In this document: piece by piece, positions 27,498 to 62,950 of the stretch
How the letters are laid out: each line of letters starts with the position of its first letter
Position numbering within the stretch: the first letter of the stretch is position 1
IMG/VR virus record: IMGVR_UViG_3300029267_004179
Location: 40,020 to 104,019 of that record
Origin: a virus
DNA: 64,000 nucleotides
Strand: one strand, 5' to 3'
Position numbers and translations under genes: made by a program
Notes under the pieces: model-generated
What the model saw: the letters and a program-made list of their open reading frames with translations, nothing else
The model's database searches: none
Told to the model about the DNA's origin: nothing

Positions 27498-28445
27498 ATG
27501 CTTGTTGATTCTGTTGGGCTTATTGAGCATTTAGGAATTGACTATCATCCATCTGGTAAGAATGTGGCTTCAAATGATATAAATATTTGTTGTCCGTTTT
27601 GTGGTGAAGATGGCTATCATTTAGGGGTAAACAAGGATAATGGGCAAATTAACTGCTGGGTGTGTGGATTTGACTACCAGGACAGATATCCAAGCTTAAT
27701 AACTCTTGTTATGACTTTAAATGACTGCTCTTTTTTGGATGCTAAGAGCATAGTTGATGAATTTAAGCTTGATGACTTCGGTGACTTAGATGATAATAAA
27801 AATAGGCTTGTTGAGAGGAAAAATATCTTAATGCCTAAAGAGTGTGAGGACTTTTTCAAGACTAAGCACAAGAGATGGGCAAGTAAGGCTCTTGACTATT
27901 TGCATAGTAGAGGGTTTGATGAAAGTACTGTCAGGAAGTATAAGCTTAAATTTTGTATTCATGGTAAGTACAAATACCGGATAATGATCCCTATTACTTT
28001 TCTTGGCAAAGTAGTGAATTTTACAGGTAGGGATTTTACAAACAGGGGTGTTAACAGATATAAGCATTGTAAGAATGATTTTTCAGCTATGAGGCAAAAG
28101 AGCTTGCTTTACGGGCTGGATAATTTTATCGATTGTGGCAAATCTCACATCAGAATATTTGAGGGCCCAACAGATGTTTGGAGAATTGGAGATACAGCAG
28201 TTGGCTTGATGAGAAATAGGATATCAGATAGACAATTGTCTATCCTTTCTGTTTTGGGTCTTGAATCAGCATCTGTAATACTTGATTTTGGATCATATAG
28301 CAAGGCAGTTGCCATAGCTGAAGAGTTGAGTGTTTTTGTCAGGAGGGTTAAGGCTGTTGAGCTTGTTGGCAAGAAGGATGTAGCCGACATGTCAGCAGAT
28401 GAAGTTTTTAATTTAGAATCTACTTTTGATTGGATGGTGTTCTAA
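27498..28445 (+). CDS. DNA primase (Zn finger + TOPRIM)
   Basis: CPFC..CWVC; RIMIP, FTGR and FEGPTD. Start adjusted from 27453. Confidence 0.9.
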   Translation: MLVDSVGLIEHLGIDYHPSGKNVASNDINICCPFCGEDGYHLGVNKDNGQINCWVCGFDYQDRYPSLITLVMTLNDCSFLDAKSIVDEFKLDDFGDLDDNKNRLVERKNILMPKECEDFFKTKHKRWASKALDYLHSRGFDESTVRKYKLKFCIHGKYKYRIMIPITFLGKVVNFTGRDFTNRGVNRYKHCKNDFSAMRQKSLLYGLDNFIDCGKSHIRIFEGPTDVWRIGDTAVGLMRNRISDRQLSILSVLGLESASVILDFGSYSKAVAIAEELSVFVRRVKAVELVGKKDVADMSADEVFNLESTFDWMVF

Positions 28446-28705
28446 TGGGTTTTAATTATAAATATTATAGAAGCAGATACAAGCCAAAAGTTGTCAGTGA
28501 ACTTCCGAAAGACATGAGGTATATTACTGTGAAAGAGGCAGCTGACTATTACGGTGTTACAAGTCAAACTATTCGTCATTGGTATTTGTCCGGCAAATTA
28601 ATATCGGTGATGTATAACCGGAAGATTTTTGTCAGGGTATCAGGATCAATTAATGATATGTTAGGATTTGTGTCTAAAAAGGATATCAGACCTGGCGTTA
28701 TATAA
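28445..28705 (+). CDS. Excisionase/MerR-type HTH DNA-binding protein
   Basis: ITVKEAADYYGVTSQTIRHW..SGKL. Confidence 0.8.
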   Translation: MGFNYKYYRSRYKPKVVSELPKDMRYITVKEAADYYGVTSQTIRHWYLSGKLISVMYNRKIFVRVSGSINDMLGFVSKKDIRPGVI

Positions 28706-28720
28706 GAATTTTGCCGCTTT

Positions 28721-28803
28721 ATTTAGCTTGTATTAAACGATCTAATAAAAACTAATACCTATATATAGGGTAAAAATTTTATAGGCCTTAAAACGGAAAT
28801 AAG
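28721..28803 (+). repeat. Dispersed intergenic element, copy 4 (core CCTATA)
   Basis: TATTAAACGATCTAATAAAAACTAATA-CCTATA-TATAGGGTAAAAATTTTATAGGCCTTAAAACGGAAATAAG. Confidence 0.95.
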
Positions 28804-28925
28804 ACAGCTTTGCTGTTCAAACCGGACTTAAAGATGATAAATTGCTTAAAATAGGCTAAATTATGTTTTTTTTGATTATTTGTTAAAATTTATGTAAAAA
28901 TATAAAAATTTTTTATTCAATGATT

Positions 28926-28956
28926 AGGCGCTGTTATTCAGCGCCTTTTTTATTTT
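28926..28956 (+). terminator. Intrinsic terminator
   Basis: AGGCGCTG-TTATT-CAGCGCCT followed by a T-run. Confidence 0.8.
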
Positions 28957-29139
28957 CAAAGATAATGAGAGAAAATATATAAAAAAAGTTTTCATAAAAG
29001 CATTATATCATTGTTATCACTTGATAAAAATTTTTACAGTTTTCCGATAATCAATCATAAGCTTGGATTTTAGATGATTATCCGGTTTTACTTTTCCGCT
29101 GTATATTATAAAAAGGAACCTAAGTTTTATGATCTTTTA

Positions 29140-29540
29140 CATCGTCGAGTACGTTGAGGGGCTGGCAAGAGGATTGGCCGGATAAAATACCTTATAAAAA
29201 ACACCCCAAGAATTCAAACTCACTTGATGCCATCCGGGAAAAGTAACCAAGCGGGCCATAACTTAACCTTAAATTTTAAGGTTAAGCCTTTCAGGGCTGC
29301 GGAGACGAAATATGGAAGTCTCTTCCTGATAAGCCAAAAATCAGCCAAGAAAACGGGGAAACCCGATAAGGGCTGGGCGCCAAGGTGAAAAATTCATGTT
29401 GACCTATATATCTGCAAACCAAAGATTGGATTTCATCTCCATTATAACCAGCACGAATCAAGTAATGCTGCAGGAATTATCCTTTGGGCGGCATACCGCA
29501 TTGAATCAAGTAGATGTGCAGGAGCATATAGGTCAACAGC
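29140..29540 (+). ncRNA. Candidate structured leader or small RNA
   Basis: ORF-free. Stems: CATC..GAGT/ACTC..GATG, CTTAACCTTA/TAAGGTTAAG, CGGG-GAAA-CCCG and TGTTGACCTATAT/ATATAGGTCAACA, the last enclosing two hairpins with a GAATCAAGTA loop. Confidence 0.55.
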
Positions 29541-29546
29541 AATAAG

Positions 29547-29630
29547 GGATGATTTATCATCCCAACTAAGCTTTTGTCTTTATATAAAGGACAGAAGTTT
29601 AGTTGGGTTTATAAGGCATTTTTATAAAAC
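29547..29630 (+). promoter_or_regulatory. Three overlapping hairpins upstream of an RBS (putative RNase III site or switch)
   Basis: GGGATGA/TCATCCC overlaps a ~21-bp stem CCCAACTAAGCTTTTGTCTTT/AAAGGACAGAAGTTTAGTTGGG, which overlaps TTTATAA/TTATAAA. Confidence 0.55.
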
Positions 29631-29654
29631 TTTAACTTTAATTAGGAGGGAATT

Positions 29655-30008
29655 ATGTCTGATAATAAAAATGATATTAGTATAATAGATGCTATAGGTT
29701 CTTTAAGGCCTTTCACAGAAGGTGATTGGCAAGGGTACAGTGGAGCTGAAGGCGACAATCCATTAATTGCTGAAATTGGCAGTTTCATCTTTATTATCGA
29801 TGAAGCTGGCATCCAGGTAGATTATGTCCATGATTTTGATGAAACTGATGAAGATGGAGAACCCATTCTTGGAAGTCCTTGGGATGAGAGGTTTTTGTCC
29901 TTGGGCACTCAGTGTGTTAGCATCGCTGTTTTCTTTGAGATTTTCCGACTTATAAATAGCGAAGGCATCACTATGAGTGATGCCTTGGATAAGCTGAACT
30001 TTAAATAA
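29655..30008 (+). CDS. Acidic hypothetical protein (probable first early gene)
   Basis: AGGAGG RBS. Confidence 0.7.
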   Translation: MSDNKNDISIIDAIGSLRPFTEGDWQGYSGAEGDNPLIAEIGSFIFIIDEAGIQVDYVHDFDETDEDGEPILGSPWDERFLSLGTQCVSIAVFFEIFRLINSEGITMSDALDKLNFK

Positions 30009-30694: not shown

Positions 30695-30755
30695 CACCGA
30701 AACAGCCGCAAGGCTGTCTATCATGGGTGGTTCCATGGTACTGATGAGGTAGCCA
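30695..30755 (+). ncRNA. Type II hammerhead ribozyme 1
   Basis: ACC-GAAA-CAGCC[GCAA]GGCTG-TC^-TATCATGG[GTGGTT]CCATGGTA-CTGATGA-GGT; full core; GUC cleavage after 30718. Confidence 0.92.
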
Positions 30756-30845
30756 AATAAAATATAAAGTTTGACAAACTGAAAATAATGTTTAAAACAG
30801 CTTTCGATGGTATTGAACCGCACTATTAATAAAAAGGAGGATAAA

Positions 30846-31638: not shown

Positions 31639-31699
31639 CACCGAAACGGCCGCAAGGCCGTCGTGGTAGGGTTGTGCCTACCGCCTGATGAGGTAGCCA
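31639..31699 (+). ncRNA. Type II hammerhead ribozyme 3
   Basis: ACC-GAAA-CGGCC[GCAA]GGCCG-TC^-GTGGTAGG[GTTGTG]CCTACCGC-CTGATGA-GGT; cleavage after 31662. Confidence 0.92.
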
Positions 31700-31732
31700 A
31701 ATAAAATACAAACAATATAAAAGGAGGATATT

Positions 31733-33148
31733 ATGAAGAAGGCTGATGACATCACAAGTTATTTGAGAGCTGGATTCAGTGCTTTCTGGGTAACTACTCA
31801 AGAGCCAAGAAGGGCTGTTGAGGTGCTGACTGAGAAGATTGAGCAATTTGTCCGGAAGGATGGTGGCAAATACAGGATTGGCAATTGGAACTGTCTTGGT
31901 GGTGATCCTGTAAAGGCCTTGTCTATCAATGGTGATTTTAATGTAAAATTCTTGATGAACTATCATTGGTTCATCAAGAAACCACCTGTTGTGCAGACAA
32001 TTCAGGATAACATAGAAGTCTGGAAAAATCATGGCAATGCTATCATAGTTGTTTCTCCTGTGATGGATATCCCCATTGAGCTTGAAAAGGATTTTGTACC
32101 TTTGTCATTGGAGCTGCCTGATGAAAAGGCCATTAAAAAGTCTTTCCAATACATTTCTGAGAGTACAAACGGGGCTGTTAAAGTGCCAGATGGGACTGAT
32201 TTTGATAAGCTTGTGTCTGCCTCAAAAGGGCTTACACAGCTGGAATTAGAAAACACATTGGCCTTGTCTGTTGTGAAGAAAAGAAATTTTGATAGTGAGG
32301 TCATTTCTGATCATAAAGCCAGCATCGTTGAAAAAAGTGGACTTTTGGAGATAGTTAAGCCAACTATTACATTTGATGATGTGTGTGGTTATGACCAGAT
32401 TAAACAGTTTGTCCTTTCTACTATCCGCAAGCCTGAAGCAAAGGGCATCTTAATTCTTGGTCCACCTGGATGTGGTAAAACGATGTTCATGAATGCTCTT
32501 GTCGGCACTACCGGGAAAATAGGACTTAACCTGAATTTTGGGAAGATGTTCTCAAAATATCAGGGTGAGACTGACCAGAACATCGAAGCAGCTATAAAGG
32601 TGATTGAGGCCATCGGTGACTGTATTGTGATGGTAGATGAGTTTGAGAAGCAATTTGCCGGTGCTGCTTCTACCGGTGAAACAGATAGTGGTGTGACCAG
32701 AAGGGCAACTGGCCGATGGTTGAGGTTTATGCAAGAAAGGCCAAAAGGTGTTTATATCATCGGCACATGCAACTCATTTAGAGGCATGCCGCCTGAGTAT
32801 CTGAGGCCTGGAAGATGGGACAGCAGCCCTTTCTTCATTGATCTTCCGAGTCAAGGCGAAAAAATGGAGATCATGGCATATTATTTGGGGAAATACAGGC
32901 TGGCTGTCGATGGGAGAACACCAAGACTGCCGGCCATGGATAAATGGACTGGAGCTGAAATTGAAGCGTGCTGCCGTAATGCTTCAATGATGGAGTGCTC
33001 TGTGGCTGATGCATCAAAGTTCGTTTTGCCTCAGGCAAAAACTATGGAAGATGAAATTTCCGAGCTGAGGACATGGTCGAAAGGCAGGACAATTCCAGCA
33101 ACCATTGTGATAAAGAAAAAGAAAAAGAAAAGGGTAATTGACACATAG
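31733..33148 (+). CDS. Ycf46-like AAA+ ATPase
   Basis: Degenerate N-terminal AAA (T.EP.R, IPIELEKDF); active GPPGCGKT, VDEFEK, TCN and LRPGRWD; C-terminal LR.W..GR..PA. Confidence 0.85.
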   Translation: MKKADDITSYLRAGFSAFWVTTQEPRRAVEVLTEKIEQFVRKDGGKYRIGNWNCLGGDPVKALSINGDFNVKFLMNYHWFIKKPPVVQTIQDNIEVWKNHGNAIIVVSPVMDIPIELEKDFVPLSLELPDEKAIKKSFQYISESTNGAVKVPDGTDFDKLVSASKGLTQLELENTLALSVVKKRNFDSEVISDHKASIVEKSGLLEIVKPTITFDDVCGYDQIKQFVLSTIRKPEAKGILILGPPGCGKTMFMNALVGTTGKIGLNLNFGKMFSKYQGETDQNIEAAIKVIEAIGDCIVMVDEFEKQFAGAASTGETDSGVTRRATGRWLRFMQERPKGVYIIGTCNSFRGMPPEYLRPGRWDSSPFFIDLPSQGEKMEIMAYYLGKYRLAVDGRTPRLPAMDKWTGAEIEACCRNASMMECSVADASKFVLPQAKTMEDEISELRTWSKGRTIPATIVIKKKKKKRVIDT

Positions 33149-33158
33149 TTACAGTTAG

Positions 33159-33248
33159 GTGACCAGGTTTTCCTGGTCACCTGTTAAGGTAGCAAGCTGA
33201 AATCTTTGTTCTTGCTACCTTAACAGGTGATAGCTGTTTACTATCAAC
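33159..33248 (+). promoter_or_regulatory. Three overlapping hairpins upstream of an RBS (second instance)
   Basis: AGGTGACCAGG/CCTGGTCACCT overlaps the perfect 20-bp TCACCTGTTAAGGTAGCAAG/CTTGCTACCTTAACAGGTGA, which overlaps TGATAG/CTATCA. Confidence 0.6.
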
Positions 33249-59510: not shown

Positions 59511-59762
59511 ATGTTAAAGGTTTATATCTCAAAAGATTATAGGTGAAACCCTATTGGTGTAATATTGTCCAAGAATCAGGCTATGGCTGAAATAGCCTTT
59601 GTTGCTATGAAAATAGGACATCATATCATAGAAGAAATTGACCTTACAGATGAGGATGTCGGGGTTAATGGTACTGTATTCTTGTTGAGTTCGGTTGAAA
59701 AAAAGATTGTAGGTTCGTCCGGCAAAACAATAGAATACCGTCACTGGCATAGAGGCATATGA
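59511..59762 (+). pseudogene. 83-codon gene interrupted by an in-frame TGA (59544)
   Basis: AAGGAG RBS; MLKVYISKDYR*NPIGVILSKNQ.. in frame with ORF-track 59565-59762. Confidence 0.55.
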
Positions 59763-59772
59763 GGAGAACTGC

Positions 59773-60357
59773 ATGGCTGAAAATAAAGTTGAAGAAATAT
59801 TATCCGAGCTATCTTTAACAGGGGAAGCTGTTTTGGATAATTTAGATAAAAGTCCTGAATTTATTACCTGGAAATGGTTGGATATTACCTACCAGTCAAT
59901 AGTAAAGTGGCGTAACATTCGGTTTCATAATGGCAATGATCATAAGATGCAAAATTGTGCTTTGTGCCAGGAGGCTGATAATATATTTGCCCGTCCACTA
60001 TATAGCCTTGATAAAGATGCCGAGCACCATCTTTGTGATTATTGCCCACTTGGTGTTTGCATTGCTGAATGTGATGATGTTGGATCACCATACTGGGAAT
60101 GGAATGATTATTTATATTCTTTTGAGCATGGTTTACACTCTGCGAAGGAAGATAAGAGTTTGGGGTTGGCTGATAACATGATTTATATGTTGTTTTTTCT
60201 TCACTATTCGATAAAATTGAAATTATATATCAAATATAAAATATCATCTTATGCTTATTTTCAAGATAATGTAGAACCGGAGTTATATGATTATGCCTTG
60301 GTTTCTTGGTGGGCATTAATGGGATGTAGTTTAGGAATGGGAGTATATAACGGATAA
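59773..60357 (+). CDS. Cys-rich hypothetical protein (paralog of 56705-57283)
   Basis: Same motif series as 56705-57283. Confidence 0.7.
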   Translation: MAENKVEEILSELSLTGEAVLDNLDKSPEFITWKWLDITYQSIVKWRNIRFHNGNDHKMQNCALCQEADNIFARPLYSLDKDAEHHLCDYCPLGVCIAECDDVGSPYWEWNDYLYSFEHGLHSAKEDKSLGLADNMIYMLFFLHYSIKLKLYIKYKISSYAYFQDNVEPELYDYALVSWWALMGCSLGMGVYNG

Positions 60358-60409
60358 TTGGAAGAACTTTAGTGTGAATTCAATCATTTGTACTATTTAA
60401 GGAGGAGTA

Positions 60410-60661
60410 ATGGAAAAACTTGCAAAAGCGGTAAAACTTGCGGTGGAAATAAAGGAAGAGTCATTTGATAAGGAAATGGCCGAAGAAAATAAAGACAAAA
60501 AATTCTTTGATTTTAACAAATGCTACAAAATCTCTTTGAGGGAAGCTGCAGACAAGGCTGCTGAGAAAGTTGGGTTTGATGAGAGGGGAGCATTTCCGGT
60601 TTATCTTCTGTTAGAATATTGCTGGAATGATATTCTTGATTGGGCAAAAAAGTTCGATTAA
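60410..60661 (+). CDS. Hypothetical protein
   Basis: AAGGAGG RBS. Confidence 0.7.
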   Translation: MEKLAKAVKLAVEIKEESFDKEMAEENKDKKFFDFNKCYKISLREAADKAAEKVGFDERGAFPVYLLLEYCWNDILDWAKKFD

Positions 60662-60713
60662 GAGTTGCATAAAGAGACTATAATAGATAAAGAACTATAA
60701 AATATTTTAGGGA

Positions 60714-61540
60714 GAAAAAAGATGGCATGTATAAATAGAATTGGGACAAGCACAAGAAGATCAGACTTGTCTATACATGCCATCTTTTTTCGGCCCTTTT
60801 ACGTCGGAAAGCCTGTCATTATTATTCCCTTTGCCATAAGTGTATTATTCTTCGCAATGGGTAAATGCGTCCGGCGTTTGGGATATTCATTGACCCCGGT
60901 TTTTGCCAATTGGGCCAGGAGCCCAATTCTAAAATTTATTCTTACTGCCCGGTAGTTTTTACTGACCGGGCAGAACTGCTGTTCTGTTGGACACTTATTG
61001 GACCGACGAGAATAGTGGTGACTCTACTACGCCATAAAAAAAGTATATAATTAGTATGGAGGACAGAAGCCAAATGAATGGACTTCTTAAAATTGAAAGT
61101 TGGCGTATTGTGTGTGTGGCCGATACTTGCTAACATAATCATCGGCTTCATGTAGCACCTCAAGGGCATAGTCCCGAGTCTCTGTTGAAGAAGAGTAAGA
61201 TCATTGACTATGCCCTTGAGTCGGATAATTGTGAAGTTTCCGGTTGCTGTGGGAATATTGCTGATGAACTACCTGTACCCGCCGCACCGGTCGGTATTAA
61301 ACCCTCGCTCGGCACCACTCGGCATTGGTCTCGATTATTTTCACCGACTGAAAGTAGTTACTGTAACGGTGATTGATTCGACTTATAGATTGTGCTGTAC
61401 CGGGCCAGGAGAGACATTGTCATTGTAGATTGGCATTAACCCTTTCCCCTCCCCGGCAGACTTACTTTTGGTGTTCCAGTTATGTATAGTGATGTCGGTG
61501 GTGCTGGTATTAACACCTTGGTTCTGCCGGGGGTTTTTGA
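60714..61540 (+). ncRNA. Candidate large structured non-coding RNA (~830 nt)
   Basis: No credible ORF; many nested stems (20-bp 60714-33/60772-91; 15-bp 61159-73/61206-20; 10-bp 61451-60/61523-32); G-U pairs favour the + strand. Confidence 0.65.
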
Positions 61541-61556
61541 GGTTGAGTAGTTATCT

Positions 61557-61634
61557 GTTCCCGTAGTCCAAAAAGGCAAAGGACACGAGGCTTTCAATCT
61601 CGGTACGTGGGTTCAAGTCCCACCGGGAACACCA
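61557..61634 (+). tRNA. tRNA-Glu(TTC)
   Basis: GTTCCCG/CGGGAAC acceptor; CGAGG-CTTTCAA-TCTCG; GGTTCAAGTCC; encoded CCA. Confidence 0.93.
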
Positions 61635-61655
61635 ACCTGCTTTATTGAAATTAAC

Positions 61656-61696
61656 AAAAGGGCAGTGGTCGTTTATGGCCCTGCCCTTTTCTTTTT
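61656..61696 (+). terminator. Intrinsic terminator after tRNA-Glu
   Basis: AAAAGGGCAG..CTGCCCTTTT plus CTTTTT. Confidence 0.8.
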
Positions 61697-61723
61697 GGTT
61701 CTTTTGGTAGAATAGGAGCAGAT

Positions 61724-62050
61724 ATGAAAGCTTTCATTTTTAGGGTTTTCTGTGATGATTACAATACTGCTCATGTGATAAGAAAGACCATAGAGCTTAT
61801 TGGAAATGGCGATTCTGTTTGTGTAACTACCTTTGATGGTAGAAAGTATGAAGTTGTGCAGCAGCAGAATTTACCTGTCAAAGTAAGATCGGAAGTGCCT
61901 TTTGTCAATATCATGGCTGGTGCTACATTTGATCTTGTGAAGAGTCGCACTTGTGGGGAAGGATACTTGCATAGGGGGAGTGAAACTCTGCTACCTATAG
62001 ATTTTGTAATGCAAAACTTGGAAACAGGAGGTTTTACCGGCTTTTTTTAA
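61724..62050 (+). CDS. Hypothetical protein
   Basis: AGGAG RBS. Confidence 0.65.
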   Translation: MKAFIFRVFCDDYNTAHVIRKTIELIGNGDSVCVTTFDGRKYEVVQQQNLPVKVRSEVPFVNIMAGATFDLVKSRTCGEGYLHRGSETLLPIDFVMQNLETGGFTGFF

Positions 62051-62076
62051 GAAAACCATAATAAGGAGTTATAAGG

Positions 62077-62412
62077 ATGATTAAAAGAATTATCGAGATT
62101 AATATGAATGATGAAGATTTTTACAAAGTGGTGGCTTTTGTTTCTAAAATGGCAGGTATGGTTGCTGCCGAAGGTAAGGGTGAAATTGAAATATATGACG
62201 ATGCTGATTTTAAGGTAGTTAAAAGGCAGGAGAAGTATGTCTTAACCGAGGACTATCATGGAATAAAAAAGGGGACCATTGCATATTTGGAAAGAAGAGG
62301 TCCTGTTTCCAGTAATTCATATACATTGATTGGTCCTGATGGGGAGGCACCTTTGGTTGTTGGTCGCAGCTTTGTCGAAACCGAAAGACTTTTTGAACCC
62401 TATAAAGGGTAG
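62077..62412 (+). CDS. Hypothetical protein
   Basis: RBS present; packed ORF. Confidence 0.65.
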   Translation: MIKRIIEINMNDEDFYKVVAFVSKMAGMVAAEGKGEIEIYDDADFKVVKRQEKYVLTEDYHGIKKGTIAYLERRGPVSSNSYTLIGPDGEAPLVVGRSFVETERLFEPYKG

Positions 62413-62437
62413 GGCAAGATGAGCAAAAGGGGAAGCA

Positions 62438-62950
62438 ATGGAATTTATATGGTTTTGGATTTGTAAGGGGGCGGCTGAATTTTTAATCGGCTTGTTTTTT
62501 GTCGGAGCTGTGTTCTCGGTTATATTTGCCGGTGATTTTGCCAAGATGATTAAACAATGGCGATGCAAACATAAAAAGTATTACAACTACGCAGGACAGG
62601 CAAAGTGTGTTAAGTGCCGTAAAGTTCTTGGTAGTTATCAGGAGTTCGAAAATGGAGGCAAAATGAAAACTATTGAAAGTAAAACTACCTGTCCGATGTG
62701 TGGGCATAATAAATGGGAAGTACAGAAGAAGACTTCCGGCATGGGTGTTTTCATTCTGGTTATCGGTTGGATAGTATCGTTGTCGGCTTGTTCGAAGGTT
62801 GCAACGTCCGCTTCTATTGGTGGTTTTGGTGGAATACTTTCGGGTATTCTTATTTTTATTCCATTGATCTTGATCTTCTTTTTTACCGCAAGGAAGTATG
62901 ATAATATTGATTATGTTTGTTTGAACTGCAAGCATATAACAAAATTATAG
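62438..62950 (+). CDS. Membrane Zn-ribbon protein (LITAF-like C-half; internal start at 62663)
   Basis: CPMC-TM-TM-CLNC; internal GGAGG plus ATG. Confidence 0.6.
   Translation: MEFIWFWICKGAAEFLIGLFFVGAVFSVIFAGDFAKMIKQWRCKHKKYYNYAGQAKCVKCRKVLGSYQEFENGGKMKTIESKTTCPMCGHNKWEVQKKTSGMGVFILVIGWIVSLSACSKVATSASIGGFGGILSGILIFIPLILIFFFTARKYDNIDYVCLNCKHITKL

Follow-up and report, generated by a model that had tools for sequence, protein, structure and literature searches.

The window, i.e., the whole analyzed stretch of 64,000 nt, comprises the final 64 kb of a 104,019-nt IMG/VR virus record rated complete by CheckV; the source is an uncultured phage from marine sediment and seawater with a genome of approximately 104 kb. 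Within an otherwise densely coding block, a gap of 895 nt (60662–61556), with no ORF longer than 77 aa in code 11, separates an 83-codon gene (stop at 60661) from the gene for tRNA-Glu(UUC), which follows directly. The neighboring genes and the tRNA are all on the + strand. Both the long gap and its position immediately upstream of tRNA-Glu agree with the initial annotation, and every motif named there is found at the position it gave. The features are as follows.

60714–60791, + strand: hairpin I1, a perfect 20-bp stem (60714–60733/60772–60791) with A6...T6 at its base and a 38-nt, partly paired loop
60722–60955, + strand: 77-codon ORF with GGGAG 8 nt upstream and its start codon inside the 20-bp stem of I1; codon score −0.07, shadow-ORF-like
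60797–61023, + strand: domain D1, with a 100-nt irregular arm (60807–60904) and hairpins 60908–60928, 60945–60973, and 60975–61019
61024–61309, + strand: domain D2, with hairpins 61065–61087, 61099–61134, and 61275–61297, and a 129-nt arm (61139–61267) containing I2
61159–61173/61206–61220, + strand: stem I2, perfect 15 bp, within the D2 arm
61310–61556, + strand: 3′ part D3, a poorly defined fold with a C-rich tract CCCUUUCCCCUCCCC (61440–61454)
61451–61460/61523–61532, + strand: final stem of D3, 10 bp, followed by U5 (61534–61538); terminator-like, p 0.54
61557–61634, + strand: tRNA-Glu (anticodon UUC), found by ARAGORN and by the Rfam tRNA model (60.7 bits), with CCA encoded and an unusually long D-loop
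61659–61696, + strand: GC-rich hairpin (AGGGCAG...CTGCCCT) followed by TTTTCTTTTT, read from the sequence; local z −3.5 (61601–61800)

The G+C content of the gap, 0.437, is the highest among the genome's ORF-poor gaps of at least 250 nt (0.29–0.42 in the others), and the GC skew, +0.3 to +0.45 in the genes on either side, drops to about 0–0.1 in the gap. No copies of the gap sequence are present elsewhere in the genome. The stretch is found, with identical sequence, in five DNA runs from four studies (marine sediment and seawater metagenomes), and among the listed runs no RNA dataset contains it; at 59700–62500, contigs of three runs are identical to the window with zero variants, and a fourth run covers this region in fragments only. 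The portal protein is at most 47% identical to any of 5.8 billion proteins searched and at most 35% identical to those of deposited phages, while a DnaE search yielded one relative, 32% identical; the phage forms a lineage of its own. Both genes next to the gap (194 aa and 108 aa; 59773–62050) proved to be ORFans when compared with libraries of 1.8 and 5.8 billion proteins, and a search of IMG/VR with both proteins gave no homologs. At position ~63931, 69 nt before the record end and 2.4 kb from the RNA locus, contigs of three separate runs (two from sediment, one from seawater) stop at one position, which points to a true end of the genome or a terminal repeat and not to an arbitrary break in the assembly.

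By every test run (codon usage, Pfam, translated searches) the gap looks non-coding. Its ORFs have codon log-likelihoods of −0.07 to −0.11, with one at +0.07; the reference medians are −0.11 for shadow ORFs and +0.20 for real small genes. Pfam showed no match to six-frame pieces of the gap, and tblastn showed none in 1.14 Mb of related loci or in 50,697 phage records; the neighboring genes are also ORFans, hence the missing homologs of the gap ORFs say little. Reading with code 4 (TGA = W) or with TAG as Gln opened no convincing frame in the gap. We regard it as quite unlikely that the region codes for one or several small ORFan proteins and that its hairpins serve translation or transcript stability. 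The candidates would be the hydrophobic 77-codon ORF (60722–60955), which has a plausible ribosome-binding site (GGGAG 8 nt before ATG 60722), is called as a gene on four contigs, and encodes a 17-residue hydrophobic segment, and a 19-codon ORF (61074–61133) with GGAGGA 10 nt before ATG 61074; the real genes nearby are likewise ORFans. However, the codon score of the 77-codon ORF is within the shadow-ORF range; its start codon and codons 17–23 form the perfect 20-bp duplex; hydrophobic ORFs arise by chance on a T-rich strand; no homolog and no Pfam or tblastn match is seen; and such genes would account for no more than one third of the gap. The 19-codon ORF (MNGLLKIESWRIVCVADTC) lies inside D2 and is in frame with ATG 61056; its GGAGGA–ATG arrangement (61058–61133) could be due to chance, with about 0.1 expected.

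Folding of an 857-nt stretch of the gap gives z −6.1 relative to shuffled sequences, and z −4.3 without the 5′ hairpin I1 (760 nt), compared with +0.83, +1.06, and −0.35 for three coding controls of 857 nt. The centroid retains 83% of the MFE energy in the gap vs 55–70% in the coding controls. The signal is mainly local, coming from I1, the hairpin cluster 60905–61023, and the I2 arm. D1 has z −4.7 (200 shuffles), with hairpin pair probabilities of 0.94–1.0 and a mean positional entropy of 0.67; D2 has z −3.5, pair probabilities of 0.9–1.0, and an entropy of 0.68; D3 (61305–61556) has a non-significant z of −1.5, with 14 of 200 shuffles folding as well, and an entropy of 1.35. A 14-bp A-run/U-run helix, 61024–61040 with 61534–61550, is predicted to close D2 and D3 together (p about 0.6–0.7).

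These results bear on the initial annotation, which had proposed an RNA of ~830 nt with nested long-range pairings. Its perfect stems of 20 and 15 bp (I1 and I2) are both real, and so is its final stem followed by a U-run. The nested pairs CGTCGG/CCGACG, ATAAGTGT/ACACTTAT, CAATGGGTA/TATTCATTG, and GAAGCC/GGCTTC, on the other hand, have ensemble pair probabilities of about 0; forced on the first domain, they give a fold at −62.5 kcal/mol, 17 kcal/mol above the MFE of −79.5 and no better than shuffled sequence (−58.5 ± 4.5). The repeat GGGCCAGGAG is indeed present twice, at 60912 and 61402, but chance alone would give about 0.4 such 10-mer repeats in 895 nt (estimate). The proposal is supported as to a stretch that is non-coding, thermodynamically unusual, and directly upstream of a tRNA; the first 78 nt have the appearance of a boundary hairpin more than of a part of the RNA, and the 3′ third is poorly defined.

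The minus-strand z-scores equal those of the + strand, i.e., the signal consists of Watson–Crick inverted repeats, and therefore thermodynamics neither fixes the strand nor proves that an RNA is made. Among the perfect hairpins with arms of at least 15 nt, two of the three in the 104-kb genome are in the gap; the number of perfect inverted repeats of at least 8 bp is modestly raised, 7 in the gap vs 2.25 ± 1.6 in shuffles, the reference being a window mean of 4.1 per 895 nt and a maximum of 15 near 28.5 kb. Perfect stems of 15–20 bp are generally commoner in terminators, processing sites, and DNA palindromes than in conserved tertiary folds. The equal strand scores and the perfect palindromes are consistent with non-functional or decaying foreign DNA, or with palindromes acting at the DNA level as protein-binding sites in recombination, replication, or packaging, so that the flanking terminators would be the only RNA-level elements. 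Foreign origin would also explain the higher G+C; the locus is 2.4 kb from the contig end common to three assemblies; and the region has no counterpart in the rest of the genome or in the databases searched. Still, we consider this explanation unlikely: no iterons, direct repeats, or AT-rich unwinding region are seen; the terminase genes are far away; a non-functional stretch of 0.77 kb is unusual in a tightly packed phage genome; and D1 and D2 form well-defined multi-hairpin folds. Elsewhere in the window, the densest perfect inverted repeats (15 per 895 nt vs the mean of 4.1) are at 28200–29700; a link between the gap and the GAAUCAAGUA loops of the structured leader at 29 kb was considered and rejected.

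Hairpin I1 begins 52 nt past the stop of the 83-codon gene. With T6 within the stem and a 38-nt loop, it is outside the rule of the terminator scan. The only other perfect 20-bp hairpin in the genome (33177–33230, loop 14) directly follows a gene ending at 33148 and is overlapped by an 11-bp hairpin (33157–33230); it may likewise signal a transcript boundary. Given its position after a stop, its A6/T6 base, and the other 20-bp hairpin also following a gene end, I1 is probably an operon-boundary element, i.e., a bidirectional terminator or an RNase III-type processing site, and not a part of an ornate fold.

At the other end, a GC-containing stem with a U-run at once after it, as in intrinsic terminators, is seen both at 61659–61696 and at 61516–61532 followed by GTTTTTG. 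The former is the probable intrinsic terminator closing the unit of RNA and tRNA; it lies downstream of the tRNA, and U5 of the gap is 18 nt from the start of tRNA-Glu. In the 3′ part of the gap, TTGGTGTTCC (61468–61477) is a perfect 10-nt complement of the 3′ acceptor strand plus CCA of tRNA-Glu (61626–61635); such complementarity has a chance of ~6% (estimate) and hence is unexplained rather than significant. Neither the 19-mer of the tRNA-Glu D-arm nor the 22-mer of its T-arm/acceptor had hits (0 each) in the IMG/VR contigs searched.

We compared the locus with Rfam 15, using cmscan at gathering scores on the window and with permissive filters (E ≤ 10) on 60300–61800. At gathering scores, solely two tRNAs and two type II hammerheads are detected in the window, all outside the gap; with E ≤ 10 on 60300–61800, besides the tRNA, there are only chance miRNA-like matches to the long hairpin. 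Apart from these, the gap has no match to any family in Rfam 15, including GOLLD, ROOL, group I/II introns, RNase P, tmRNA, and self-cleaving ribozymes, nor is any tmRNA predicted by ARAGORN. Membership in GOLLD (RF02032) or ROOL (RF03087), suggested initially, fails at E ≤ 10 for both models: the best match to RF02032 in the genome is 13 nt long, scores 4.2 bits, and is outside the gap; the 574-position model RF03087 has no match at E ≤ 10, with the control genomes also matchless and so providing no positive control. The group II intron piece RF01998 is absent from the genome, and the first 40 kb of the genome contain no Rfam family. Judged by these models, the stretch belongs to no described RNA family.

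Several smaller elements were also considered. The sequence CUGAUGA at 61261 has no GAAA core partner and no Rfam hit, and a hammerhead in the gap was rejected. The tRNA model gave no second hit in the gap at E ≤ 10; a tRNA look-alike at 61419–61494 (relaxed ARAGORN) is at chance level, as 36–49 such hits occur per shuffled 104-kb genome. The two type II hammerhead ribozymes of the window are on the + strand at 30695–30758 and 31639–31702, with scores of 59.4 and 49.4 bits, above the Rfam gathering score.

Searches for homologs of the gap, likewise proposed at the outset, yielded none in the phage collection, IMG/VR, JGI metagenome contigs, GTDB genome contigs, or 49 related virus records. Here, blastn at a distant setting found no homolog in 50,697 phage records. 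The portal used as a single query found no relatives, and a portal alignment search gave 80 loci (30–45% identity); the gap, compared with these 80 loci and with three whole relatives by nhmmer, blastn, and tblastn, gave no match, the three relatives having no tRNAs, and there was no match in 45 further virus records. A single-sequence covariance model of 60905–61023 found only itself in 1.0 Mb. The loop plus linker pattern gave 18 chance hits in metagenome contigs, the best of them inside a coding region; the twin GGGCCAGGAG pattern gave 4 chance hits in GC-rich phages; and the 20-mer of hairpin 60908–60928 gave 2 chance hits in GC-rich bacteria.

The reading we prefer, with a probability of about 0.5, is an orphan non-coding structured RNA unit made of stem-loop domains, co-transcribed with tRNA-Glu, and functional in either architecture, i.e., as one large RNA or as several modules. 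The gap itself, its missing coding signal, its composition, and its unusual folding energy are shown by the data; we infer the transcription, strand, processing, and function of the stretch as follows. A protein-free phage transcription unit on the + strand (60792–61696) would end in tRNA-Glu, bounded upstream by the 20-bp hairpin (60714–60791) and downstream by the terminator (61659–61696). The ~765 nt between them and the tRNA (60792–61556) would most likely be made as structured RNA comprising D1, D2, and the looser 3′ part. RNase P, cutting at the 5′ end of the tRNA (61557), would release a 765-nt leader; an RNase III-type enzyme could cut the long perfect duplexes, with a possible further cut at I2; and this processing may yield one or several stable structured RNAs. 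By context, their function could be that of an accessory RNA of the phage tRNA island, like GOLLD, ROOL, and the T4 stable RNAs.

GOLLD and ROOL are large structured RNAs encoded beside phage tRNA genes; they form RNA-only cages, and their function is unknown. We find it doubtful that the locus makes one large ornate RNA of this kind (about 750–830 nt), of a new class, stable, highly folded, possibly self-assembling, and released from the tRNA precursor. Its size, the adjacent phage tRNA, and the strong overall folding signal argue for it, as does the 14-bp helix 61024–61040/61534–61550 closing D2 and D3; GOLLD and ROOL share this context (PMC12286853). It is weakened, however, by the missing match to the GOLLD and ROOL models, by the initially proposed long-range helices with p about 0 and the ill-defined D3, by a signal chiefly from local hairpins with no supported pseudoknot, and by the lack of any homolog, hence of covariation. 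Within the preferred reading of a structured unit co-transcribed with tRNA-Glu, the evidence leans toward a string of smaller modules as the product rather than one large RNA.

Only tentatively might the 765-nt stretch be the first member, and as yet the only one, of a new class of giant tRNA-linked phage RNAs. It is similarly speculative that this class would be an analogue of GOLLD and ROOL, unrelated to them in sequence and secondary structure, and released from the precursor of tRNA-Glu through cuts by RNase III and RNase P. Each independent class in the niche of GOLLD and ROOL would help to show what this niche selects for. The candidate, which comes from a phage lineage without close relatives, could be such a class; as a single sequence, it is no more than a lead. 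What it offers in practice is a bounded target (60792–61556, + strand) for metatranscriptome mapping and in vitro structure probing.

GOLLD and ROOL have been reported near phage tRNA islands, and the marine GOLLD env-38 adjoins a tRNA (PMC12286853). As with GOLLD, located in phages or prophages near a tRNA and ~800 nt long, the locus is in a virus record, with a gap of 765–895 nt; it is, like GOLLD, a non-coding phage stretch of ~0.8 kb directly beside a tRNA gene, here from a marine metagenome. Unlike GOLLD, the gap is not matched by the 416-position model, which covers the conserved 3′ region of GOLLD, and the 3′ part, which is the conserved core in GOLLD, is the least structured part of the gap. 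The likeness to ROOL is in a phage-borne, tRNA-island-associated, multi-hairpin stretch of several hundred nucleotides, predicted here from sequence; the differences are the lack of a match to the ROOL model at E ≤ 10 and of supported pseudoknots in the gap.

Two further systems have features in common with the locus. The species 1 and 2 RNAs of phage T4 are tRNA-like RNAs of 120–140 nt with unknown function, co-transcribed with the phage tRNAs and released by tRNA-processing enzymes. The gap is similarly non-coding and beside a phage tRNA, and co-transcription is what we infer here, but, unlike these RNAs, it contains no detectable tRNA-like module. The terminators and RNase III hairpins of phage operons are resembled by I1 (20 bp, A6/T6 flanks) and by the stem plus U5 at 61451–61538; however, these would explain only ~170 nt, with D1 and D2 (~510 nt) left over.
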